The position numbers and the translations under genes were made by a program. From Bacteroidota bacterium (GTDB lineage Bacteria; Bacteroidota; Bacteroidia; NS11-12g; UBA9320): 64,000 nucleotides of DNA. The DNA lies in contig NVWV01000005.1 of the NCBI GenBank assembly GCA_002746305.1, positions 205,126 through 269,125 on the forward strand. The letters are read 5' to 3'. The notes under the pieces were generated by a model. The model was not told where the DNA came from. It worked only from the letters and a program-made list of their open reading frames with translations, and ran no database searches. Position 1 is the first letter of the stretch; each line of letters opens with the position of its first letter. Positions 7,292 through 64,000 of the stretch are shown in pieces.

Positions 7292-9145
7292 TTAATCTAT
7301 TTTTTTCCCTTGAAGAGCTTTTGCAATTTTTTCATCCATTGCCTTTTCCGCAAATTGACGCGAAAAATTATTCAATTCTTCTGTAGAGGTAACGATTAAA
7401 TTCCTGTCTTTAGCGTTTACAGCCTGTCTTAAAATTTGAACGTGCTTATTAATACCATCAATATCGGATGAAGTAAGAAGGTGAGCATTTTGATTTATAA
7501 ACTTGTCAGTAGCATAAATTAATTGATCTCCTTCTGCAATAGCTTCAGCTAGAGATCTTGTTTTCATATCTGATTCTGCATTATCTATGCTTGCTTTAAG
7601 CATGGATTTTATCTCGTCATCTGTAATGCCATATTGGGGCTTCATTTCTACTTGCTGTTGTACCCCAGATCTCTTTTCTTCGGCACTTACTTGAAGAATC
7701 CCATCTGCATTCAGCATAAAAGTCATTTCAATCTTTGGCATACCTGCAGGCATTGATGGAATATTTTGTAATATGAATTCTCCTAGTTTTCTGTTGTCAG
7801 CGACCATTTCTCGCTCCCCTTGATATACATTAATAGCTAAGTTCACTTGTCCATCCACTGACGTTGTATACTCTTTACGAAGTTTAGTGGGAATCTTGTT
7901 GTTCCTTGGAATAAGTACATCCATCATTCCTCCTAAGGTTTCTATTCCCAAAGATAAAGGAGTTACATCCAACAATAGCATGTCAGTTCTGTTTCCAGCT
8001 AGTATATCTGCTTCTATGGCAGCACCAAGAGCTACAACTTCATCAGGATTAATATTATTATTTACTTTAGCACTCATAAAGAGTTTTGATACTTTCTCTT
8101 TTACAAAAACAGTTTTAGTACTACCTCCAACCAAAACTATCTCATCAATGTCTTCAGCACGTAATTCAGCGTCTTTAAGAGCATTTTGAGAGCAAATCAA
8201 TGTCTTACATACAAGAGGATTAATTAATTCATTAAGTTGCTTAATATTTAGACTTAAAGGAATGTTTTTTCCACCCAAGAGTAAAACCGAATGAAATTCA
8301 CCACTTTCTCCGAGTATTTTTTTTGCGTTCTCAGCGGTTAGCCTAAGTGATTGTTTTTCGTTTTTAGATAGATTTTCGAGATTAAACAAGTCTTGCCAAA
8401 AATTGACAATCTGTTGGTCAAAATCATCCCCTCCAAGGCTGGTATCCCCATTCGTTGCAAGAACTTCAAAAATGCCATCTTGAATGGAGAGAATTGAGAT
8501 ATCAAAAGTTCCTCCTCCCAAGTCATATACTGCCACTGTACGGGGTTTTTCTGTGTCTTGACCAAGACCATAAGCTAAACTAGCAGCAGTTGGTTCATTA
8601 ATTATTCTAAGTACATCCAAACCAGCAAGCTTACCTGCATCACGTGTAGCTTGACGTTGAGAATCATTGAAATATGCAGGAACGGTAATTACTACTTTAG
8701 AGATTTGAGTATTTAGTTTTAATTCAGCTATGTTTTTTAATTCTTTAAGAATATACGATGATAGCTCGGTGGGAGAATATAATCGCCCTTCAATCCTCAC
8801 TTGAATCAACTTATCATCGTTGTCTACTATCTCATAGTTCAATTTGTGATTTCCTTTCATCACATCTTGATAGCTTTTACCCATTAATCTCTTAATAGAG
8901 TAGATGGTATTTTCAGGCTCATCAACCATTTTGTTTATTGCTGATTGACCAATGGATATTGCATCATTGCTAATGTGAAGGACACTTGGAACTATGCTTG
9001 CTTCATCTTTGGTAATGCAATATGGCATTCTGCTAGTTTCTTCTATACTAGCTATTAAGCTATTTGTTGTGCCTAAGTCTATACCTATGACTACAGAGCT
9101 TTTGGCAACTGTGCCCGAGGTAAGATTTATGGATATTTTAGCCAT
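7292..9145 (-). CDS. Hsp70-family chaperone paralog (HscA-like, not the canonical DnaK)
   Basis: The actin-like ATPase phosphate-1 motif IGIDLGTTNSLIA is present, along with DLGGGTFDIS, a substrate-binding domain and a helical lid. At 617 aa with a non-DnaK N-terminus and C-terminus, it matches the HscA-type second Hsp70 of Bacteroidota. Confidence 0.7.
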   Translation of the reverse strand: MAKISINLTSGTVAKSSVVIGIDLGTTNSLIASIEETSRMPYCITKDEASIVPSVLHISNDAISIGQSAINKMVDEPENTIYSIKRLMGKSYQDVMKGNHKLNYEIVDNDDKLIQVRIEGRLYSPTELSSYILKELKNIAELKLNTQISKVVITVPAYFNDSQRQATRDAGKLAGLDVLRIINEPTAASLAYGLGQDTEKPRTVAVYDLGGGTFDISILSIQDGIFEVLATNGDTSLGGDDFDQQIVNFWQDLFNLENLSKNEKQSLRLTAENAKKILGESGEFHSVLLLGGKNIPLSLNIKQLNELINPLVCKTLICSQNALKDAELRAEDIDEIVLVGGSTKTVFVKEKVSKLFMSAKVNNNINPDEVVALGAAIEADILAGNRTDMLLLDVTPLSLGIETLGGMMDVLIPRNNKIPTKLRKEYTTSVDGQVNLAINVYQGEREMVADNRKLGEFILQNIPSMPAGMPKIEMTFMLNADGILQVSAEEKRSGVQQQVEMKPQYGITDDEIKSMLKASIDNAESDMKTRSLAEAIAEGDQLIYATDKFINQNAHLLTSSDIDGINKHVQILRQAVNAKDRNLIVTSTEELNNFSRQFAEKAMDEKIAKALQGKKID

Positions 9146-9198
9146 GCTGCAAAGGTATTTATTCTATTCTCAGAGAATTAAGAAATGGATATATAAAT

Positions 9199-11151
9199 TT
9201 GTTTGCACCAAACATTGTGATTATCCGTAAAATCCTCACCATATCTATTTGTTTTTTACTTTTTGAAAGTAGAGCAGATATTAATTACGATAGTCTAATT
9301 CGAATTTCGGATTCTACTCATGTAAAGATGAAGTTGTATAGCGAATGGGTTAATTCAATCGCAGACTTAGATGCCGAACTCCAAGACCAAATAATCACAC
9401 AATTCATAATTGCTGCTGAACGTGAGGGAAGTGAATTTGATATTTACAATGCATATGCGTCAAAAGTATATCGGTATCGGTTGTTTGCTGAGTATGAAAA
9501 AAATCTTGTTTTAATTGAGCGAATAGAGGAAATGCCGTATTATCAAAAGCACATTGAAGCACAATTTTACATGCAAACCCAAAATGCTCTTACGCTTCAT
9601 AGAATGGGCAACTATGATGGAGCAATCGAATTATATACTCGTGTTCTAAAAAAGGTGAGAAATAGCAAGAAGGCCCAAAAGTGGAAGACCTTTAGATTAG
9701 GTAAAGTTTTAAGGATGATTGGTGAAGTATATGAAAGCCAGAAAAGGTATGATAAAGCTATAAACTATTTTAGAAAGTCTATTATATTAATGTCTCAAAT
9801 GGACTTTGACCCTGGGGTTTATAACAACTATAAAGAGCTTTCGTCGGTATATGCTAAGAAAGGGTGGTGTGATTCTGCATTGATATTTGCTAGGTTATCA
9901 GATAGCTTCTTTTACGCTAGAGGTAATTTGTTCTTTGCAGCTTCTTCAGAAAGAAATAAGGCAGCAGCGTATGGATGTCTTAATGATTTTGAGAATCAAT
10001 ATTTCAATTTAATATCAGCTCTTGATAAGGTGGAAAAAACGAAGTATAGAAGCCTTGAATTTTCTGTTTTACTAGATATAGCGATTTATTATTATGATCA
10101 AAAGCAATCTAGTAGTTCATTTAATTTTTTAGACTCGGCAGAAGCATTGTTAATTAGAGCTCCACAATCAGAGCGGTTACGTTTTTTTAATTTTTCGTAT
10201 CAAATTAATAAAGAAGAGCGGAGGTGGACTAAATCCTATGAAGCGAAGGCTAAGTATCAGGAGGTAAAAAATGAAATATATGATACGAGGACTTTAGCAA
10301 ATTTGGCCTTCTTGAGTATAAAATCAAATAACTTATTAGAAGACAAGGACTTAAGATTAATGCAAGATGCAAATCAACTAGAAATATTAAAAGTTGAAAA
10401 TTCTAAGTTTAATCAAAAAATACTCATAGTTAGCTTAATAGTTCTTGGTACATTAATAATAGCCTTGATTACTTTGTTTTTTATTATTAGAAATAACATA
10501 AAGAATAAAAAGGAGTACAATGAGCTTCTGGGTTTTACAAATGCAAAAACGTCTGAACTTCTGCAGCAGAAGGAGCAATTGCTAAGAGAGATACATCATC
10601 GAGTAAAGAACAATCTGCAGATAATAATTAGTGTCCTCAACCTGCACAAATCTGAGCAAACGGACAAAGCTAGGGTGTTGGAAAGTTGTAGGAGTCAGAT
10701 TCAAACGATGGCCTTAATTCATGAGGAAATATATAAATCTGAGGATTTAAAGAGCATTAGCTTTCATAAGTATATGAATGAAATGGTTAGATACTTTTTA
10801 AAGGCGAACTCAACAAACAAGGATTTGAAGATTAATCTTAAGCTGGATGAGTTCGAACTTGATTTGGATACTATAATTCCTACAGGGTTAATAGTCAATG
10901 AACTCTTTAGCCTCTTTATTAACGAGGATGGGCAATTTCAGAATATTGTATTGACAGCTAGGAAGAATGAGGATTTATACGTTTTTACAATTGAAGATTC
11001 AAATCCAAAGAAATTATCAAGTAAAGAAGATTTACGAGTAAGAATAGTAGAAAAGCTAGTAACAAAGCAACTCAGAGGTGATATCCATTTTGAGTACATC
11101 AATAGGATGATAAAAACTGTGAAGTTTAATTTTAGAATAACGTGCAAATGA
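9199..11151 (+). CDS. Sensor histidine kinase: signal/TM, extracytoplasmic TPR-repeat region, TM helix, HisKA_2 + HATPase_c
   Basis: TPR-like repeats are present (GNYDGAIELYTRVL, YDKAINYFRKSI). The TM segment is ILIVSLIVLGTLIIALITLFFII. The H-box EIHHRVKNNLQIIISVLNL is the HisKA_2 signature, followed by an ATPase region. The exact start codon is uncertain. Confidence 0.65.
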   Translation: MFAPNIVIIRKILTISICFLLFESRADINYDSLIRISDSTHVKMKLYSEWVNSIADLDAELQDQIITQFIIAAEREGSEFDIYNAYASKVYRYRLFAEYEKNLVLIERIEEMPYYQKHIEAQFYMQTQNALTLHRMGNYDGAIELYTRVLKKVRNSKKAQKWKTFRLGKVLRMIGEVYESQKRYDKAINYFRKSIILMSQMDFDPGVYNNYKELSSVYAKKGWCDSALIFARLSDSFFYARGNLFFAASSERNKAAAYGCLNDFENQYFNLISALDKVEKTKYRSLEFSVLLDIAIYYYDQKQSSSSFNFLDSAEALLIRAPQSERLRFFNFSYQINKEERRWTKSYEAKAKYQEVKNEIYDTRTLANLAFLSIKSNNLLEDKDLRLMQDANQLEILKVENSKFNQKILIVSLIVLGTLIIALITLFFIIRNNIKNKKEYNELLGFTNAKTSELLQQKEQLLREIHHRVKNNLQIIISVLNLHKSEQTDKARVLESCRSQIQTMALIHEEIYKSEDLKSISFHKYMNEMVRYFLKANSTNKDLKINLKLDEFELDLDTIIPTGLIVNELFSLFINEDGQFQNIVLTARKNEDLYVFTIEDSNPKKLSSKEDLRVRIVEKLVTKQLRGDIHFEYINRMIKTVKFNFRITCK

Positions 11152-53519: not shown

Positions 53520-53594
53520 GGGAGCTTAGCTCAGTTGGTTTAGAGCATCTGCCTTACAAGCAGAGGGTCGCTGGTTCGAATCCAGCAGTTCCCA
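53520..53594 (+). tRNA. tRNA-Val (anticodon TAC)
   Basis: Folded by hand. The acceptor stem is GGGAGCT/AGTTCCC (one G·U). The D-arm is GCTCAGTTGGTTTAGAGC. The anticodon stem TCTGC/GCAGA has loop CTTACAA (anticodon TAC). The T-arm is GCTGGTTCGAATCCAGC with the GTTCGAATC box. Discriminator A; CCA is not encoded. 75 nt. Confidence 0.85.
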
Positions 53595-53616
53595 CATTGA
53601 ATATCAATCATTTACA

Positions 53617-53646: not shown

Positions 53647-53907
53647 TGCACACGATTTGCATAAAATTCTGTAAGTAAGTAGTAAGTATTCTTCATAGCT
53701 TTGTTTTACTATTTTTAGTGCAAAATGATTTGTAAGTTGATATATCTGTAGGTAAGGCCAAAAAAAATAGAAGCGCTAAGGTCTGTAATTGCTGTTTTTA
53801 CTGCATTAAGGGTGATGTTATCCCCTTTTGGGGATAGATGGTATACTCTTTTGGGGATGTCTTTATAATTAAAAAAGATAGTCTTTTGCATCTTTTAGAT
53901 TCTCAAT

Positions 53908-54864
53908 TTGTTTATTAAAGAAAAAACTATCGATGATTTATTGCTGTCTCTCTATACCAGTATTGAATTACAACCTAAATCAACAATTACAACATCTCGA
54001 GGAGAGTGTATCGAGGAGCTTGGTGTTTATCTTAAGTTAACTAATCCATTGTCCAGGGTTAGTTGGTCAGTTTCACGAGGTAAAGCTTTCAGCGCTCTTG
54101 GAGAATTTCTTTGGTATGTTTCAGGGAGTGATAAATTGGACTTTATTGAGTACTATATACCGAAGTACATTGATGAATCTACAAATGGTGAATCAGTTCA
54201 TGGCGCATATGGTAAAAGAATTTATTGTCAAGAATATTGTCAAATAGAGCAAGTAATTTCTTTATTATCCCAGAAACCAAATACAAGAAGAGCAGTTATA
54301 CAGCTATTTAAGGTCGAAGATCTAAATGTAGAACTAAAAAATATCCCTTGTACTCTTAGCCTTCAGTTTTTCATACGACATTCAAAATTGGATATGCATG
54401 TTTTTATGAGGTCAAATGATGCCTACAAAGGACTTCCTCATGATATTTTTTCATTTACTCTATTGCAAGAATATATTGCTCGAAGGTTAAATGTTGAGTT
54501 AGGTACATACAATCATTTCGTTTCGAGTATGCATGTATACAAATCAGATATTTCTAAAGTTAAAAAATACATTAGTGATGGATATCAATCTAGCTCAAGT
54601 ACTATGACTAAAATGCCTTTTGAAAAGCCTAAAGAAAATTTAGATATATTACTTTTATATGAGAGTAAAATCAGAAAAAAGGGCATTGCTAGCGCTAAGG
54701 GTATTAATGATTATTGGGCCGACTTAATAACTCTGTTAAACATGTATCGATGTTTTAAGGATAAGGATTCTGTTGAATTTGAAAGGCAAATGTCTCTTCT
54801 TAATAATACAGGTTATAGGCAGTTAGCAAAAGAAAAATTTTCACAATTGGTGGGTAAAATATGA
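53908..54864 (+). CDS. Divergent thymidylate-synthase-fold enzyme (pyrimidine-nucleotide C5 hydroxymethylase/methylase-like; not a canonical ThyA) with ~90-aa C-terminal extension
   Basis: Motif alignment to ThyA is clear. NIPCTLSLQFFI corresponds to LPPCHxxxQFYV (catalytic Cys conserved). RSNDAYKGLPHDIFSFTLLQ corresponds to RSCDVFLGLPFNIASYALL. SSMHVYKSD corresponds to GDAHIYSNH, so the ThyA Asn177/His region is altered and an Asp appears as in dCMP hydroxymethylases. It is far more divergent than housekeeping ThyA, which is nearly invariant in these motifs. Confidence 0.6.
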   Translation: MFIKEKTIDDLLLSLYTSIELQPKSTITTSRGECIEELGVYLKLTNPLSRVSWSVSRGKAFSALGEFLWYVSGSDKLDFIEYYIPKYIDESTNGESVHGAYGKRIYCQEYCQIEQVISLLSQKPNTRRAVIQLFKVEDLNVELKNIPCTLSLQFFIRHSKLDMHVFMRSNDAYKGLPHDIFSFTLLQEYIARRLNVELGTYNHFVSSMHVYKSDISKVKKYISDGYQSSSSTMTKMPFEKPKENLDILLLYESKIRKKGIASAKGINDYWADLITLLNMYRCFKDKDSVEFERQMSLLNNTGYRQLAKEKFSQLVGKI

Positions 54865-55778
54865 CAAAGAAATATGTAGAAATGTATGCTGAGGTTGACA
54901 AAGCAATACAGAAATGTAGCTCTGAAAGGCAAATGCCAGGACTAAATGATGAGGTTCGGAAAACTTTGAATTTACAGTTTGTAGATAGTATAAAGAGAAT
55001 AAAAATAATTGAAGTAATAGATAAAAAGGGAGTTGATGATACTTGTTTAAAACTGAATAGTGACACATTTAACCCTATAAAAGCCATTGCGTGGTATAAA
55101 AGTATTGGAAATTATAATGAGGCTATATGGTTGATTTTTCTGGTTACGCATTTTGGTAAGAACATAAATACAAATTGGAATTTGTTAGTTGATACGTATT
55201 CAGGAGCACGTGTAGATTCTATTTGGAATTGGGAAAGCACATCGACGGAGTTGGGAGATTTTTTGGATTGGTTGAATCTAAATGAAGGTAACCTTAAGAA
55301 AGTCGGAAAATTTGGAAATCATCGTAAATATCAGAGTATTAGTGCAGTCTGTAAAAATGGTACTGGTGACGCTTTTACGAGTTATATTAATTGGATTGGA
55401 GAAGATCGAGACCAACTGGCTAAATTACTCGAAGTAACTAATTCAGCTGGAAATTCGTTTGAAAGATTTGATATGCTTTATTCTGCAATAAAAAGAAATG
55501 TAAATTCGTTCGGTAGAATGGCCACTTTCGACTTTTGCACCATGCTTGGAAAGTTTCGACTTTTAGATATTGAACCGGGACACACCTATCTTGCTGGGGC
55601 TACTGGTCCAGTTTCAGGTTTGAAAACATTGTTCGGAAATAAAACATTAAAGGAATTGGATGAAGATGTTATGGTTCTATACCGAAACCTTAATCAGTTT
55701 TACGGTATGCAAATAATAGAAGATGCTATTTGTAATTGGCAAAAATCAACAGCAAAGTATAGATATTTTGGAGGTTAA
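54861..55778 (+). CDS. Unknown 305-aa Trp/aromatic-rich protein, translationally coupled partner of the thymidylate-synthase-like gene (candidate nucleotide/base-processing enzyme)
   Basis: An ATGA start/stop overlap at 54861-54864 indicates co-translation. No motif I can place. It is rich in W/F/Y and has conserved-looking segments (FGNHRKYQS, SFGRMATFDFCTMLGKF). It has no P-loop, HEXXH or Rossmann Gly-rich loop. Confidence 0.45.
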   Translation: MTKKYVEMYAEVDKAIQKCSSERQMPGLNDEVRKTLNLQFVDSIKRIKIIEVIDKKGVDDTCLKLNSDTFNPIKAIAWYKSIGNYNEAIWLIFLVTHFGKNINTNWNLLVDTYSGARVDSIWNWESTSTELGDFLDWLNLNEGNLKKVGKFGNHRKYQSISAVCKNGTGDAFTSYINWIGEDRDQLAKLLEVTNSAGNSFERFDMLYSAIKRNVNSFGRMATFDFCTMLGKFRLLDIEPGHTYLAGATGPVSGLKTLFGNKTLKELDEDVMVLYRNLNQFYGMQIIEDAICNWQKSTAKYRYFGG

Positions 55779-55784
55779 TCGTGA

Positions 55785-56855
55785 TTAAGAATCCAAAGAG
55801 AAAAAACGTTTGTAGCTATTGAGGTAACCTGGCTTTATTATCCCAAAATATTGCATTTGACCTACAACAATTCCCGGAGATATTCCTAGTTTACTTGCAA
55901 ACGCAATGATTTTTCGTTTGTTACTATTTAGTGTTCTTAATTCTTTGTGAAACTCATTTGGAATCAATACTTCCTGCGCAAATAGGTTAGCCTCATCTTC
56001 TTGTTCATTTATCGATTGCTCGATCTTTCGCTCAATTATGAAGTTGTCTTTTTTATGAAGAAAAATATGGCCTGCTTCATGAAAAAAAGTGAACCAAAAT
56101 TGATCATCGGATTTATATCTAAAACTTAATAAGATCATTGCTTTATCTGGTTTTATAAATCTTGTAGCCCCACTTTCAGTACATCCTTTAGGTGTCGGAA
56201 CTACGGCGACAGCAACTCCACATTCAGAACATATTTTTTTTAGTTCAGATATAAAAACACTTGGATTTTTTTTACGAGTAAGCTTTTTAATTTCTTGTAA
56301 TGCTAATTCAAATAATTCTTTATTAAAGGGCTTACAACTTAGTGCCTCACATTCTTTTTCACCTTGCCTTAACCATGTTGAAAGTGAAAATTCATTTGTC
56401 TGATAGGCTTGAGACGTCCTAAATGATATATTGGAGGTGTTAAGCACATAATGTTTTGACCATTCATGGATATTCTTAACGTTAAAAAAGTCTAAACATT
56501 CTTGAAAGGGATTATTTGACTCCCTTATCCAATTGTGCTTAAACATGTCTTTTAAAGGTAACTTCTTTAACCATTCAATTTGAGTAAGCCTATCAATACC
56601 ACTAATCTTATTTCTGTAATTAGCTTCTCTTTCAAGCCAAAAATTGGTAGATCCTCCAAGATGAATGGCTAAATGTTTTGATACTTCATTGTCTATGGTT
56701 ACTTCACTTCTCAATAATCTGCTTGTAAACTCAAACGTCCAGCCAGTTTTATGTGACAAGATTTGTGTAGATATTGATTTAAGTCTCATTAAATCAATAA
56801 TTGTACTCCCTGGACTTGAAGTCCAGTTTGGCTTAAAATTAACTTGATCTTTCAT
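55785..56855 (-). CDS. Fusion protein: N-terminal HigA-like XRE-family HTH domain + C-terminal ImmA/IrrE-family (DUF955, COG2856-like) HEXXH zinc metallopeptidase
   Basis: The HTH segment LKSISTQILSHKTGWTFEFTSRLLRSEVTIDNEVSKHLAIHLGGSTNFWLERE ends in the HigA-characteristic …FWL. The C-terminal FFHEAGHIFLH is the HEXXH motif of ImmA/IrrE peptidases, with the downstream Glu-rich region NEQEDEANLFAQEVLIP typical of the family. Confidence 0.6.
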   Translation of the reverse strand: MKDQVNFKPNWTSSPGSTIIDLMRLKSISTQILSHKTGWTFEFTSRLLRSEVTIDNEVSKHLAIHLGGSTNFWLEREANYRNKISGIDRLTQIEWLKKLPLKDMFKHNWIRESNNPFQECLDFFNVKNIHEWSKHYVLNTSNISFRTSQAYQTNEFSLSTWLRQGEKECEALSCKPFNKELFELALQEIKKLTRKKNPSVFISELKKICSECGVAVAVVPTPKGCTESGATRFIKPDKAMILLSFRYKSDDQFWFTFFHEAGHIFLHKKDNFIIERKIEQSINEQEDEANLFAQEVLIPNEFHKELRTLNSNKRKIIAFASKLGISPGIVVGQMQYFGIIKPGYLNSYKRFFSLDS

Positions 56856-57144
56856 TGGCTTTATTTATAGCTACTACTTTTATTCTACTTTCTTCGTATT
56901 CTTTGTTTAAGTCTTCTCTTAGAATCTCTACTGTTAAACTATATTCTAAATCTAGTTTAATTTCTATTAGTGTCTTGCTTAAACGGTTGATAGGAAATGG
57001 GAATTCATTAAAAGTGTTGACACTCAATAAATCAGATATTCTATTTTTTATTTGGGTGGCAATAGTAATACCAAACATTTGTTCTGCAATATCGGTGTTT
57101 TCACAAACATCTCTAATTTTTTTGTCCCCAAATGACAATATCAA
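56839..57144 (-). CDS. HigB-like toxin candidate (RelE/ParE superfamily) upstream of the HigA-like HTH-peptidase gene
   Basis: The size is small (≤101 aa; alternative start MFGIT… gives 78 aa). The toxin-first order and 17-nt overlap with the HTH gene are typical of higBA. The N-terminal ILSFGDKKIRDVCEN resembles the HigB opening (I-K-S-F-x-x-K-x-L). This is a weak, by-eye similarity only. Confidence 0.3.
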   Translation of the reverse strand: MILSFGDKKIRDVCENTDIAEQMFGITIATQIKNRISDLLSVNTFNEFPFPINRLSKTLIEIKLDLEYSLTVEILREDLNKEYEESRIKVVAINKANERSS

Positions 57145-57382
57145 ATCTCTGTTTATTAATGTTTATTCCTATGCGAATCTAAGTTTTGTAATGATAAAAG
57201 GTGAGTTCAGCTTCAAATAACTTGCATGAAACAATTTGTGTAAATAACAGTTATTGTGCATTTAAAGAAACAGAGACGCGTAAGCGCTTGAAAATGTGGC
57301 ATGTACGTTATTAATAATTTTAGCTGACCAATTTTTGCCCCCTCATACTATCTGGAGTTCAACGGATGATACTTAAAGTCAT

Positions 57383-59892: not shown

Positions 59893-62800
59893 ATGATGAA
59901 AAAATTATCTTATTTTTCGATTGTACTATTTCTTTTTCTAAGTAGTCTTTCCCATGCACAAAACACGTCTTGTTCCTTTGATGAACAACTCGCTCGGTAT
60001 CAACAAGCAGACCCAATCGGCTATACAATGAGCAGAGCTGCTCATGTAGCTGCGGTAAAACAGTACCGAGCTAGCCACCCAAACACTAACCATCTTCTCA
60101 ACTCGAACCAAACGGGCAATAGCAATGCACTATTGGGCGGTTCGTGTGACAGTGCCAAATATATTCTCCCTGTAGTGATTCATGTCATTCACGATCCATT
60201 GGATACATTGGGAAGCGGGAGTAACATCAGTCACGCACAAATACAAAATCAGTTGGAAGAATTGAATCACGCCTTTGGCAACTACTATATGCCGCATGGT
60301 CCTAGTTCTGTAAACACTGGAATCAAATTTTGTTTGGCACAAACTCGACCTGATGGTTCTAGTTTCAACGGCGTGAACCGTATCGCTAGTAGCCGCAGTA
60401 CACATCCCCGTTGGGAAGAAGATAGCTTACTAGCATTAATACACTATCCAACGGATAAGTACATCAACATCTTTGTGGTAGATAAAATAATAGATAGCAC
60501 AGGAAACAATGGAGGGGTGCTAGCTTATGGTAGCTACCCGTATTGGGGCAGTAGAGCAAGTGACCTCATTGTCATCCGTCATGATTGGTTTGGAAAATAT
60601 ACCTCCTCACTACCTGCATTGGATGGTTTAGCAGAAGGCAAAGTATTGGCCCATGAAATGGGACATTATTTGGGTTTGTTTCATCCCTTTGAGGGTGGTT
60701 GTACTGGTACAAATGCTAACGATTGTATGAGTAAGGGAGATATGTGTTGTGATGTGCCTGCCGTTGCTGCTGATGTAAATGGAGGGTGTAACAGTGTAAA
60801 CACCTGTTTTGAGAGCTATAGCAGTAATCCACCCGACCAAAAAGAAAACTACATGGACTATAGCTACCCCAGTTGTAAAAACACCTTCACCGCCGACCAA
60901 GCAGATGTAATGTACACCACATTGGAAGGTATACGAAGTAGTTTGTGGAATCCGACCAGTATCAATTCGCTCAATCTGTCGTGCTGCATTAACTCAGCCC
61001 AGTTTATAGGGCATACCGATGGGTGTAACATAGATAGTTTGAACTTACAGGCTTATGCCTATTCGGGTGGAGCTTCATACACATGGAATTTTTATAAAAA
61101 CGGAAGTTTATTTAAAACAGAAACCGTCACTACATCTGTCTATCAAGTGTTACTGGACTCAGGCAACTACGATGTACAACTGACCATTACCACAGGAAGT
61201 CAAAGTTTTAGTAAACTGGTAGAGAATGCAATGACTATTTACAAATGCGATAGCTTATTACCCAGTACACAAGGTTCATGGTATTTCGGGCATAATGCAG
61301 GAATGCGGTTTTATGATAATGGCTTGGTATTAAAGGATATTGAACCTTGGAAAAATCAAGTCCCTACTCAAATCAATTCAGGAGGTGCAACCCTGAGTAT
61401 GAGTGATAGTATGGGTGATTTATTGTTTTATGGTGGAGCAGAGTATATCAATAGTAACCTAAGAATCTTTGATTCAGACTATAAACAAATGAAGGGTAGC
61501 CCGATACTGGGAGACTTTAATGCAACCCAAGGAGCAGTTACCATTCCAGTACCCACTAGTGATAGTTTATACTACATCATTCATACGGACAAAGCGGGTA
61601 GAAGTCCGTTTTATTCGATTATTGATATATCCATAGGTATAGATAGTATTATCTCAAAGAATGTATCCATAACAGGACCTGTAGGTGCAGGGGGCTCTAC
61701 AACTATTGGGCAACTAAAAGAAGGTCTTACCTGTATCCCAAAATGCGGGAATGAAGACTACTGGGTCTTGTTGAGTAGGTACGATACCAGTACAGGTAAT
61801 TCATCCATTGTGAAACTCATTGCTGCAAGTGATACGATTACCTATCATTCGGCACAGAACGTTCCTAACATGGAAGTAAGTGCTAGTATGGTAGTTTCTC
61901 CAGACGGTAAGCTAGTGACTATCGGTAATCATTTGTATTCTTTTTGTAACTCTGATGGTAATCTTACGCTCATAGAAACAGATAGTAGTGATTTTTTAAT
62001 ATACTCGTTAGCTGCATCCTTTTCTCCCAATAGCAAACTTCTTTATCGTCTAGAGTACTATTTTGATCCAGGCTTTGCGTTCTATCCCAAAGAACATAAT
62101 TATCTACTCCATCAAATAGATCCTTATGCGGTATCTCCTGTTAACACTAAAATACTTATTAAAGAAACAGAATACCACCGCTATATGCAGTTAGCTCCCA
62201 ACAACAAGATTTATATGTCCGTTCTAAACGGAGCTTTACCCTATGTTTCATCCATTAATGATCCCAATGCTCGAATTCAGGATAGTTCGCAGTTTGATTA
62301 TACCGAAGAATCCGTATTTACTATAAAGAATGGTATTGGAGGGATGTCACAAGGAATAACCAATCATATCAATGCCAAAGCCTTGGTAGACTTAGATACC
62401 AATTTTGTGATTCGAGAAATGAGTTGCTTTACCAAACGATTTTTACCAAGCACCTGTTGTGCATCTAGTTATTACTGGAATTTCGGAGATGGGACTACCA
62501 GTACCAGTATGGAAATAGAACATACATATGCCGACACGGGTTGGTATGATGTAAGTCTAGTAATGAATGGTTCAGATACAATCACCAAAAGAATCCGAGT
62601 GGGTATTTCACCTGAGAGTTTAGAAATACAAGGAACAGATGTATTCTGTACTTCTAACTCCCCCATCTTGTATTCTGTCCTCTTTGATGCAGATTACAGC
62701 TATTCTTGGACCGCTACAGGTGCTTTAGGTCAAAGCAGTACCGATGAGCGACAAACTGAGGTTACATGGCAAGATTCGGGAATACTCAAAGTAGTAGTCA

Positions 62801-64000
62801 CCGATAAAATTACCGAGTGTACGGATTCCAATGAAATAAAAGTGTACCGACAGGATTTTGTACCTGTAGACTTTGAATACAGTTCTGAGAACTGTGCAAC
62901 ATTTGTCTTTGAAACCTCACATCATTGCGATAGTTCCTATTACTGGAATTTTGGAGATGGAACGCTAGACTCTACCCAAAACACACTGCACACCTATTCA
63001 GATACAGGGTACTACCAAGTACAATTAATCTCAGGTGGAGATACGGTTAATAAATCCATCTATGTAGGTATGCTTGCAAGTGATTTGGTACTGACTGGTG
63101 CAGCTACCAATTGCGACGATACAGCATTCTATAATTATGCTGTTCCTTTTAATCCTAACCATACCTATACGTGGAGTAGTACAGGAACAGATTTGTTCTC
63201 ATCTACGGATAATAGTGCTGTTACCAAGTGGCTCAGTACTGGAACAATTGAAGTCATTATTTATAACACTATCAATTCTTGTACGGATACTATAGGAATG
63301 GATGTTACTAAAAACTTACCTGAATTAGATTTTGCGTTTAGCTCTTCCAATTGCAAGGATGTTCAGTTTACAACCGATTACTATTGCGGACTACCCATAA
63401 AATGGATTTTTGGTGATAGTACTATTTGGGATATTCCTAAAACAAGCTCCATTCAAAACCCTATCAACACATACGCAACTGGGAGAACATACTATGCCAG
63501 TTTAGTGGTAAATGGAGATACGATAACTAAGAAAATAGTAGTAGGATCAGAGTCCATTAGCGTATCAGGATTGCCCAATCCAATCTGTGATACCAGTCAA
63601 TTTTATGAAATGACAATAGATAATTACAACCCTGCGACGACCTATACATGGGGCTCTTTTGGAGATTCCGTTTCAGTAGTTAATGATTCCACCTATTCCA
63701 TAAAGGTGTCGGGGAACTTTACCAGTAAAGGCTTTTTTGCACAAAGCGTAAATTCATGTGTTAGTAGCTATGATTTGACCTACACGGTATATACAGGCTT
63801 GCCTTTTATGAATCCTCAAATAACGGGGACAACTATCTTTTGTGACACATCGAAGGTTAATCCATATAGTGTTCCTAACGATCCCTATCAATATGCATGG
63901 TCGGTAAACAACAACAGTATACTAATTGCTGGAGCATCGGATAATGAGGTTTCGGTAAAATGGAGAGCAAATGGACAACTTAAAGTGGTTATTTCAGATC
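59893..64000 (+). CDS. Giant secreted M43-family (pappalysin/cytophagalysin-type) zinc metalloprotease followed by tandem PKD-like repeat modules; 3'-partial (runs off window end); absent from the ORF track
   Basis: Translated manually with no stop through 64000 (>1369 aa). Signal peptide MMKKLSYFSIVLFLFLSSLSHAQ. The metzincin motif is HEMGHYLGLFHPFEGGC (HEXXHXXGXXH). There are repeated ~140-aa units each containing SYYWNFGDGT (PKD WxFGDG motif) plus a second Cys-containing module (TYTWSSTGTD…). G+C is visibly higher than the surroundings across about 60.0-61.2 kb. Confidence 0.75.
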   Translation, partial: MMKKLSYFSIVLFLFLSSLSHAQNTSCSFDEQLARYQQADPIGYTMSRAAHVAAVKQYRASHPNTNHLLNSNQTGNSNALLGGSCDSAKYILPVVIHVIHDPLDTLGSGSNISHAQIQNQLEELNHAFGNYYMPHGPSSVNTGIKFCLAQTRPDGSSFNGVNRIASSRSTHPRWEEDSLLALIHYPTDKYINIFVVDKIIDSTGNNGGVLAYGSYPYWGSRASDLIVIRHDWFGKYTSSLPALDGLAEGKVLAHEMGHYLGLFHPFEGGCTGTNANDCMSKGDMCCDVPAVAADVNGGCNSVNTCFESYSSNPPDQKENYMDYSYPSCKNTFTADQADVMYTTLEGIRSSLWNPTSINSLNLSCCINSAQFIGHTDGCNIDSLNLQAYAYSGGASYTWNFYKNGSLFKTETVTTSVYQVLLDSGNYDVQLTITTGSQSFSKLVENAMTIYKCDSLLPSTQGSWYFGHNAGMRFYDNGLVLKDIEPWKNQVPTQINSGGATLSMSDSMGDLLFYGGAEYINSNLRIFDSDYKQMKGSPILGDFNATQGAVTIPVPTSDSLYYIIHTDKAGRSPFYSIIDISIGIDSIISKNVSITGPVGAGGSTTIGQLKEGLTCIPKCGNEDYWVLLSRYDTSTGNSSIVKLIAASDTITYHSAQNVPNMEVSASMVVSPDGKLVTIGNHLYSFCNSDGNLTLIETDSSDFLIYSLAASFSPNSKLLYRLEYYFDPGFAFYPKEHNYLLHQIDPYAVSPVNTKILIKETEYHRYMQLAPNNKIYMSVLNGALPYVSSINDPNARIQDSSQFDYTEESVFTIKNGIGGMSQGITNHINAKALVDLDTNFVIREMSCFTKRFLPSTCCASSYYWNFGDGTTSTSMEIEHTYADTGWYDVSLVMNGSDTITKRIRVGISPESLEIQGTDVFCTSNSPILYSVLFDADYSYSWTATGALGQSSTDERQTEVTWQDSGILKVVVTDKITECTDSNEIKVYRQDFVPVDFEYSSENCATFVFETSHHCDSSYYWNFGDGTLDSTQNTLHTYSDTGYYQVQLISGGDTVNKSIYVGMLASDLVLTGAATNCDDTAFYNYAVPFNPNHTYTWSSTGTDLFSSTDNSAVTKWLSTGTIEVIIYNTINSCTDTIGMDVTKNLPELDFAFSSSNCKDVQFTTDYYCGLPIKWIFGDSTIWDIPKTSSIQNPINTYATGRTYYASLVVNGDTITKKIVVGSESISVSGLPNPICDTSQFYEMTIDNYNPATTYTWGSFGDSVSVVNDSTYSIKVSGNFTSKGFFAQSVNSCVSSYDLTYTVYTGLPFMNPQITGTTIFCDTSKVNPYSVPNDPYQYAWSVNNNSILIAGASDNEVSVKWRANGQLKVVISD

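Follow-up and report, generated by a model that had tools for sequence, protein, structure and literature searches.

The analysed stretch, hereafter called the window, is a 64,000-nucleotide segment of a Bacteroidetes metagenome-assembled genome (MAG; GenBank assembly GCA_002746305.1, contig NVWV01000005.1, positions 205,126 to 269,125). It contains a pair of overlapping genes, both deposited as hypothetical, that encode a small protein and a HigA-type helix-turn-helix (HTH) domain fused to a Peptidase_M78 domain. We consider it probable that the pair represents a control module derived from HigBA, of the type formed by genes A and B of PD-lambda-2, and that it serves as the sensor and regulator half of a mobile four-gene cassette, which is likely anti-phage. 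The other half consists of a gene for a ThyA-like enzyme and a gene for an aGPT-Pplase3 enzyme. The pair is thus best read not as a free-standing higBA addiction toxin-antitoxin (TA) system, but as the invariant half of a cassette that contains five genes in some genomes. The fixed association of a clade of degenerate HigB proteins with aGPT-Pplase3 and a ThyA homologue of deoxycytidine monophosphate (dCMP) type is new.

The two genes of the pair are located as follows, in positions of the window:

56839..57144, minus strand, small open reading frame (ORF; “pseudo-HigB”), 101 residues, TTG start
55785..56855, minus strand, HTH-M78 gene, 356 residues, ATG start, near full-length homologue of PD-lambda-2_B

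They share a stretch of 17 nucleotides (56839-56855). A homologue of the small ORF is located directly upstream of the HTH-M78 gene in 136 of 136 cassette loci and in 66 loci of a sister group, which is far above chance and shows that the small ORF is a real, conserved gene. The two ORFs of the initial annotation are thus real and lie on the minus strand, with the toxin-like gene first and the 17-nucleotide overlap that it had described, and the same order is seen in the homologous loci. The motifs that it had quoted were found as well: GGSTNFWLEREANYR, where the HTH domain ends, and FWFTFFHEAGHIFLH, which contains the HEXXH motif.

The large protein contains the following domains and motif:

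56613..56819, minus strand, HigA-type HTH domain, residues ~13-81 (phmmer and Foldseek to P. vulgaris HigA)
55866..56177, minus strand, Peptidase_M78 domain, residues 227-330 (Pfam PF06114)
56067..56081, minus strand, HEAGH, residues 259-263 in FWFTFFHEAGHIFLH, with E286 as putative third zinc ligand

The match to Peptidase_M78 (PF06114) over residues 227-330 reached 47.1 bits (E=2.6e-12) against a cutoff of 22. The residues H259, E260, H263 and E286 are invariant in all of 30 diverse HTH-M78 homologues, and the zinc site of the peptidase is therefore intact. The second histidine and the glutamic acid are separated by 27 residues, which we take to equal the spacing of H86 and E113 in IrrE. The only Pfam match to the HTH part was weak (HTH_26, E=0.0078). 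A phmmer search of the large protein against the PDB sequences matched P. vulgaris HigA alone (E=0.003, residues 13-81). In an AlphaFold2 (AF2) model of the protein, with a predicted local distance difference test (pLDDT) score of 85.8, the HTH part aligned in Foldseek with HigA (6chv_B) at 30% identity over 71 residues, with a root-mean-square deviation (rmsd) of ~1.1 Å and a target-normalised TM-score (TMt) of 0.75-0.79, and the best structural match of the C-terminal part was CapP (7t5t, E=1.2e-4). Both domains are thus of the kinds named in the initial annotation, an HTH of HigA type and a C-terminal HEXXH peptidase of the ImmA/IrrE family. More than 3100 homologues of the HTH-M78 protein were found, and many of these align over the full length with 43-52% identity. 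Among the PADLOC profiles, PD-Lambda-2_B matched residues 60-335 (E=7.3e-31; profile positions 104-374 of 402), and weaker matches to capP (1e-9) and RmrA (3.3e-9) were confined to the peptidase part.

The small ORF has no direct match in Pfam, NCBIfam, PADLOC or PHROGs. A word-indexed protein search returned only the query itself, and an exhaustive phmmer search gave 19 weak matches. Its family was assigned via neighbour-derived alignments, profile-profile comparison and structure prediction. The ORF directly upstream of the HTH-M78 gene was extracted from 82 of 84 related loci, and the proteins sorted into two groups, A2, which includes the window protein, and A3, its sister. The A3 proteins contain the motif H..L.GDR.GQ and a C-terminal DYH, and have sub-threshold matches to PF05015; both motifs are absent from the A2 proteins. 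The profiles of the two groups aligned with each other in hhalign at 99.9% (E=1.4e-33). The A3 profile matches P. vulgaris HigB (4mct_B, E=1.8e-6), with H54 and R73 aligned, and the A2 profile gave no match among the PDB sequences. In the joint alignment, H54, R73, D90, Y91 and H92 of HigB correspond to F, S, K, A and N in the window protein. The residues H54, R73, D90 and H92 are invariant in 19 of 19 sister proteins, and are not conserved in the 64 members of the window group.

An AF2 model of the small protein, built with 35 family members, had a pLDDT of 88.2 and the topology beta-alpha-alpha-alpha-beta4. Its Foldseek matches in the PDB were exclusively toxins of the RelE/ParE superfamily (ParE2, HigB, YoeB and YafQ), with a probability of 1.0 and query-normalised TM-scores (TMq) of up to 0.65, those to HigB being 0.60-0.65. 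Judging from the alignments and the model, the small ORF encodes a HigB-derived protein of the RelE fold, the RNase activity of which has most likely been lost, because the window protein has other residues at all of the active-site positions and these positions vary across its clade. The N-terminal helical part of the A2 proteins, on the other hand, stays conserved (F5, R11, C14, E15 and D38). In the structure of P. vulgaris HigBA, it is the N-terminal helical side of HigB that contacts HigA. The initial annotation had proposed a HigB-like toxin. The fold and the homology to HigB hold, as seen in the AF2 model and the A3 profile, but all five active-site positions are substituted. Of the profile-based assignments that it had suggested, those of M78, the HigA-type HTH and, through the chain of profiles, HigB were obtained, but the small ORF itself had no direct family match.

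The pair is connected to two genes on the opposite strand:

53908..54864, plus strand, ThyA-like pyrimidine C5-alkylating enzyme (PF00303, E=2.7e-25)
54861..55778, plus strand, aGPT-Pplase3/ADDT-family base-hypermodification enzyme (PF18746, E=7.3e-73; PF18724, E=2.3e-53)

The ThyA-like and aGPT genes share 4 nucleotides, and the aGPT gene is convergent to the HTH-M78 gene, with 6 nucleotides between the stop codons (55779-55784). The stop-to-stop gap between the aGPT and HTH-M78 genes is 8-77 nucleotides in 99 of 101 related loci.

The functional tie to the ThyA-like pair suggested in the initial annotation is strongly backed by the phylogeny, by convergent linkage found from both search directions, and by the type of the small protein. 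Two homologues of the large protein that were traced to their contigs, one in Maribacter and one in a Bacteroidota MAG, showed the same arrangement. The 84 related loci comprised four from contig look-ups and 80 from species-representative genomes; the aGPT gene was convergent to the HTH-M78 gene in 51 of these, and the ThyA-like gene was present in 45. The linked loci span Bacteroidota, Alpha-, Beta- and Gammaproteobacteria, Acidobacteriota, Actinomycetota, Chloroflexota, Planctomycetota, Verrucomicrobiota and others. In a neighbour-joining tree inferred from 107 HTH-M78 proteins, the 59 aGPT-linked proteins formed one clade, and the 47 unlinked proteins all clustered outside it; the only other member of the clade came from a contig-truncated locus. 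In the opposite direction, a search started from an aGPT alignment identified the HTH-M78 gene in 53 of 53 metagenome loci and 25 of 25 viral loci, always convergent and mostly 8-77 nucleotides away, and the ThyA-like gene in 49 of 50 and 23 of 23, respectively (sampled loci with enough flanking sequence). Consistently, a hidden Markov model test of the gene upstream of HTH-M78 assigned the degenerate HigB type to all 136 aGPT-linked loci and the catalytic type to 66 unlinked loci, with one exception, which was contig-truncated; some of these loci are duplicated between the collections. Altogether, searches with HTH-M78 in genomes and viral contigs yielded 63 loci with the cassette, and the metagenome scan contained at least 566 relatives of the aGPT protein.

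These results make it very improbable that the pair is an ordinary stand-alone higBA module, in which the small ORF would be an mRNA-cleaving toxin, the HTH-peptidase its antitoxin, and the module would merely stabilise the ThyA-like islet. The genes do overlap, and P. vulgaris HigB-HigA (Rts1) likewise has the toxin gene first, a small protein of RelE/ParE fold and a HigA-type HTH. The sister loci with intact HigB residues also look like modules of this kind. The HigA domain of the cassette, however, carries ~270 extra residues including the M78 peptidase, and the window protein has other residues at all five HigB active-site positions, which are not conserved among the 64 clade members. Moreover, a two-way linkage of 100% and the monophyly of the linked proteins are unexpected for a freely shuffling TA module. 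The sister clade, with a catalytic HigB and a HigA::M78 fusion (e.g., L044, L051 and L061-L084), shows full-length HTH-M78 homology (34-40% identity) and the same gene order as the cassette, but its small ORFs keep the HigB catalytic residues and there is no conserved third gene. Some of the sister pairs (L061, L063, L065, L076 and L084) are placed beside or within type I restriction-modification (R-M) genes with HsdR/HsdM-like ORFs, and four sister loci lie inside type I R-M operons.

The architecture of the pair, a RelE-family gene followed by an Xre-M78 fusion, is of an already known kind. Genes for RelE or PIN proteins beside Xre-COG2856 fusion genes were described in 2009 as putative three-component TA systems (PMC2701414). 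The closest described system is PD-lambda-2 from E. coli (Vassallo et al. 2022), an abortive-infection defence system that consists of a HigB-like protein A, a HigA-HTH-peptidase B and a third gene C (PMC9519451). A third example is RosmerTA (RmrT/RmrA), in which the antitoxins are HTH-M78 proteins (Ernits 2023; PMC10440598). The fusion of an HTH and a peptidase that the initial annotation had described is thus not a new architecture, being preceded by Makarova 2009 (PMC2701414), PD-lambda-2 (PMC9519451) and RosmerTA.

PD-lambda-2 resembles the cassette in that a small HigB-like gene comes first and is followed by a HigA-type HTH fused to an ImmA/IrrE peptidase, and in that one or more further genes are required. 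It differs in that its protein A belongs to PF09907, while the small ORF in the window is related to PF05015 and P. vulgaris HigB and has lost the catalytic residues, and in that the P4-antitoxin-like C is here replaced by the convergent operon for the ThyA-like and aGPT-Pplase3 enzymes. Unexpectedly, it is B that is toxic in PD-lambda-2 and A that neutralises B, while C is required for defence (PMC9519451). Given the toxicity of the HTH-peptidase and its neutralisation by the HigB-like partner in that system, the labels “toxin then antitoxin” may be reversed for the pair in the window.

A reversed TA system of this kind, in which the HTH-M78 protein would be toxic through proteolysis or DNA binding, pseudo-HigB would be the antitoxin, and the ThyA-like and aGPT proteins would be accessories for phage sensing or specificity, is nevertheless unlikely as the full account. 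The near full-length match of the large protein to PD-Lambda-2_B (E=7e-31, and 1e-26 to 1e-40 in its relatives) argues for it, as does the finding that B alone is toxic in PD-lambda-2, is neutralised by A, and needs C for defence; the loss of the RNase residues would also fit a protein that acts purely as a neutraliser. On the other side, the A partners come from different RelE-like families, PF09907 in PD-lambda-2 versus the PF05015-related family here, and both enzymes are obligately retained, with the catalytic residues of the ThyA-like protein strictly kept, which suggests that the enzymes do catalytic work rather than mere sensing. The reversed system overlaps with the HigBA-derived control module that we prefer, and the two are compatible.

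The other relatives share fewer features with the cassette. RosmerTA and the Xre-COG2856 fusions are similar in having an HTH-M78 “antitoxin” beside a small toxin-like gene and links to defence. However, the match of the RmrA profiles to the large protein is limited to about residues 200-320 (best E=3.3e-9), and RmrT gave no match to the small ORF. In the cassette, a degenerate HigB takes the place of the partner, and two nucleotide-modifying enzymes are fixed companions of the pair. In CapH/CapP, ImmR/ImmA and DdrO/IrrE, an M78 HEXXH peptidase also works with an Xre-type HTH, but the cassette differs from these in that the HTH, which is of HigA type, and the peptidase are in one polypeptide, and in that a partner of the RelE fold is present.

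The ThyA-like protein keeps the catalytic cysteine and other core residues (C146, E58, Y94, R166, S167, D169, H207 and Y209). The position of ThyA N177 is occupied by an aspartic acid and that of H147 by a threonine, both in the window and in 44 of 44 cassette homologues. An aspartic acid at the N177 position is characteristic of specificity for dCMP, as in the ThyA mutant N177D and in the dCMP hydroxymethylase of phage T4, gp42, where the residue is D179. The sequence thus points to a cytosine nucleotide as the substrate, as in dCMP hydroxymethylases or methylases, and not to deoxyuridine monophosphate (dUMP). The aGPT protein contains a weak similarity to HMUDK_hel (E=0.016), and matches no PHROG family (threshold E<=0.001), in spite of the phage origin given for the family in Pfam; the aGPT subfamily of the bacterial cassettes seems, on these profile matches, to be distinct from the phage enzymes.

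Enzymes of the aGPT-Pplase/ADDT type are known from phage DNA hypermodification (PMC8989533). Because of the aspartic acid at the N177 position and the absence of a 5-hydroxymethyldeoxyuridine (5-hmdU) kinase, the chemistry differs from the described pathway for thymidine hypermodification (5-hmdU to 5-PPmdU to aGPT/AADT; PMC8989533), of which the cassette does contain a transferase of the aGPT-Pplase/AADT family. It is conceivable, and we put this forward only tentatively, that the cassette represents a new class of inducible anti-phage or DNA-marking system, in which a protease switch derived from a TA system would control phage-type hypermodification on cytosine nucleotides or DNA, with the dCMP-type ThyA homologue and the aGPT-Pplase3/ADDT transferase as effectors and without the known 5-hmdU kinase. 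If so, bacteria would have turned the viral toolkit for DNA hypermodification on the phages, and a HigB toxin would have been exapted as a non-catalytic regulatory subunit.

A thymidylate-synthase homologue is also part of a validated defence system. DefensePredictor (Science 2026; PMC13092281) validated a system in E. coli, DS-4, that contains a thymidylate-synthase homologue and a protein of the 5-hmdU-kinase family. The thymidylate-synthase homologue in DS-4 is 29% identical to the ThyA-like protein in the window (E=1e-23), but unlike the latter it has an asparagine at the N177 position, and the system contains a dNMP kinase, an HMUDK_hel protein and TIR, and no HigB/HigA-M78 pair. The “hypermodification protein” of DS-4 was considered as a homologue of the aGPT protein and rejected, as it is an HMUDK_hel protein without homology at the BLAST level. 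The same paper lists another system, predicted but not validated, that combines an HTH, an aGPT-Pplase domain and one protein homologous to a known defence gene (PMC13092281); this system may be the present cassette.

A different role for the enzymes would be the modification of self DNA or of a mobile element, as an epigenetic mark or a shield against restriction, with the pair acting as a controller that would time or limit enzyme expression, similar to the C-proteins of R-M systems, and without abortive infection. This is distinctly unlikely. The use of aGPT-Pplase/ADDT enzymes in phage DNA hypermodification (PMC8989533) would suit such a role, as would the presence of cassettes on plasmids, prophages and integrative elements, and some cassette copies adjoin Mrr-type, “restriction endonuclease” or type III res-like genes. 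Yet no conserved partner nuclease was found around the cassette copies, no shared operator was found, the four-gene form lacks kinase genes or genes that shape the dNTP pool, and the absence of PHROG matches in the aGPT subfamily implies that the window protein is not a typical phage enzyme.

Of 57 cassette copies, 33 contain four genes as in the window, while 24 contain an extra gene for a protein of ~265 residues between the ThyA-like and aGPT genes (e.g., L001 7021-7818, minus strand, and L003 7953-8753, minus strand), which is absent in the window. The extra protein has no match in Pfam, PADLOC or PHROG and no Walker motif. The cassette is mobile, and copies were found beside tyrosine integrases (11 loci) and rolling-circle Rep genes, as well as on plasmids in Leptospira and Pantoea. 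In a Mu-like prophage on one viral contig (L091, IMG/VR UViG_2899834825_000006), the whole cassette, at 7655-11057, is placed among structural genes, with the genes for Phage_tail_S, Mu F and the portal at one end and those for capsid and sheath at the other. Its position is that of cargo, similar to a moron, and is not in the immunity region.

The placement in L091 bears on the reading of the pair as a switch for lysogeny or excision in a prophage or an integrative and conjugative element (ICE), that is, a repressor-antirepressor pair of the ImmR/ImmA type. The combination of M78 and HTH follows the logic of ImmA/ImmR, and some copies are located in prophage-like contigs. In the L091 prophage, however, the cassette is cargo between the virion-morphogenesis and capsid genes, and the same cassette is found on plasmids and on unrelated types of elements. 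Phage or ICE genes were not seen to adjoin most of the cassette copies or to co-vary with them. The initial annotation had named a prophage pair with phage genes nearby as the finding that would speak against a TA module; the flanks of the cassette in the window contain no phage, integrase, ICE or conjugation genes, and the prophage repressor-antirepressor pair was rejected on this context. We consider such a switch extremely improbable.

A NUDIX/MutT-like gene recurs beside the cassette in 11 loci (e.g., L001 4196-4579, plus strand), and the enzyme might sanitise a modified dNTP. A protein of ~110 residues, possibly a DUF4031 protein as guessed from its sequence, recurs beside the cassette in seven loci.

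By analogy with ImmA, IrrE, CapP and PD-lambda-2, the HigBA-derived control module may work as a switch. Like HigB with HigA, pseudo-HigB would use its conserved N-terminal helices to bind the HigA domain, and this binding would keep the HTH-peptidase quiescent, bound to DNA and autorepressing. A cue from phage infection or DNA damage would then activate the M78 peptidase, as for ImmA, IrrE and CapP, and the activated peptidase would cleave either the linker of the HTH or pseudo-HigB. This would free the expression or activity of the nucleotide- and DNA-modifying enzymes, or the toxicity of the peptidase protein itself as in PD-lambda-2B, with the outcome that phage replication is blocked or the infection aborted. 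We interpret the loss of the active site such that HigB, once the pair was coupled to the two enzymes, retained its role in binding but could dispense with its RNase function, which decayed. A role of the cassette in defence is likely.

Several observations weigh against this reading. The case for a clade of degenerate HigB proteins is computational throughout, and within the clade it is the window protein that diverges most, at 19-31% identity. The small ORF and its relatives have no match to PD-Lambda-2_A or PF09907 and belong only to the same superfamily, and none of the four cassette proteins has a match to PD-Lambda-2_C; the results from PD-lambda-2 therefore transfer by analogy only. The four-gene cassette contains no gene for a 5-hmdU DNA kinase, an enzyme that the known aGPT/AADT pathways require, and the asparagine typical of dUMP enzymes is absent from the N177 position in the window and in all 44 homologues, so that the enzyme looks like one acting on dCMP. 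The flanks do speak for a defence context, since in a survey of 127 randomly chosen flanking proteins from 41 loci against PADLOC (E<=1e-10) the matches included GajA/GajB, SduA, AbiEii, MkoA, DrmD and others, and Mrr was also seen beside the cassette, but the survey lacked a background control. Finally, no operator shared by the two cassette promoters was found in the window. In 42 loci, the longest common substring of the two promoters of the same locus was on average ~8.6 nucleotides, versus 8.0 +/- 1.1 for a null of promoters from different loci, in a search for shared words that would miss degenerate sites. With no shared operator found, the HTH has no support as a transcriptional regulator of the enzyme operon.

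Another link between the two operons is possible. Given that the gap of 6 nucleotides leaves no room for a terminator, the transcripts of the aGPT and HTH-M78 genes should overlap, and overlapping convergent transcripts may couple the operons through transcriptional interference or antisense effects. The region upstream of the small ORF contains one candidate site:

57243..57255, no strand assigned, perfect 6-1-6 palindrome AATAACAGTTATT, ~100 nucleotides upstream of the small ORF, candidate HigA-type operator

The sequence of AATAACAGTTATT hints weakly at a HigA-type operator. Upstream of the ThyA-like gene, a palindrome, TATCCCCTTTTGGGGATA, is present at 53819-53836, and a second copy of CTTTTGGGGAT at 53845-53860, ~50-90 nucleotides before the start codon; these could form a regulatory site that has no relation to AATAACAGTTATT. 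Scans of the window for consensus promoters and terminators gave matches at background level.

In evolutionary terms, one branch of the HTH-M78 proteins has been captured as a fixed partner of two modifying enzymes, and it is at that point that HigB lost its RNase residues, which makes the cassette a clean natural example of a toxin turned into a regulatory subunit. The cassette is defined, widespread, mobile and unstudied, and its four genes could be cloned for studies of phage defence and of a possibly new, cytosine-based modification. It also offers a handle on how HTH-M78 fusions, which are mechanistically opaque in PD-lambda-2 and RosmerTA, are coupled to their effectors.

The cassette in the window is placed between a tRNA gene and a gene for a protein sorted by the type IX secretion system, and a HemN-like gene is also present in the flanks:

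53520..53595, plus strand, tRNA-Val, flank of the cassette, possible former integration site

Within the window, there is no direct, att-like repeat of the end of the tRNA-Val gene and no integrase. A scan for rRNA and non-coding RNA over 53-64 kb identified tRNA only. From ~60900 to 64000, there is no closed ORF of at least 90 residues, and a repeat of 26 nucleotides that codes for YYWNFGDG is present at 62470 and 62938. This suggests that a long gene for a protein with PKD repeats runs past the right end of the window.

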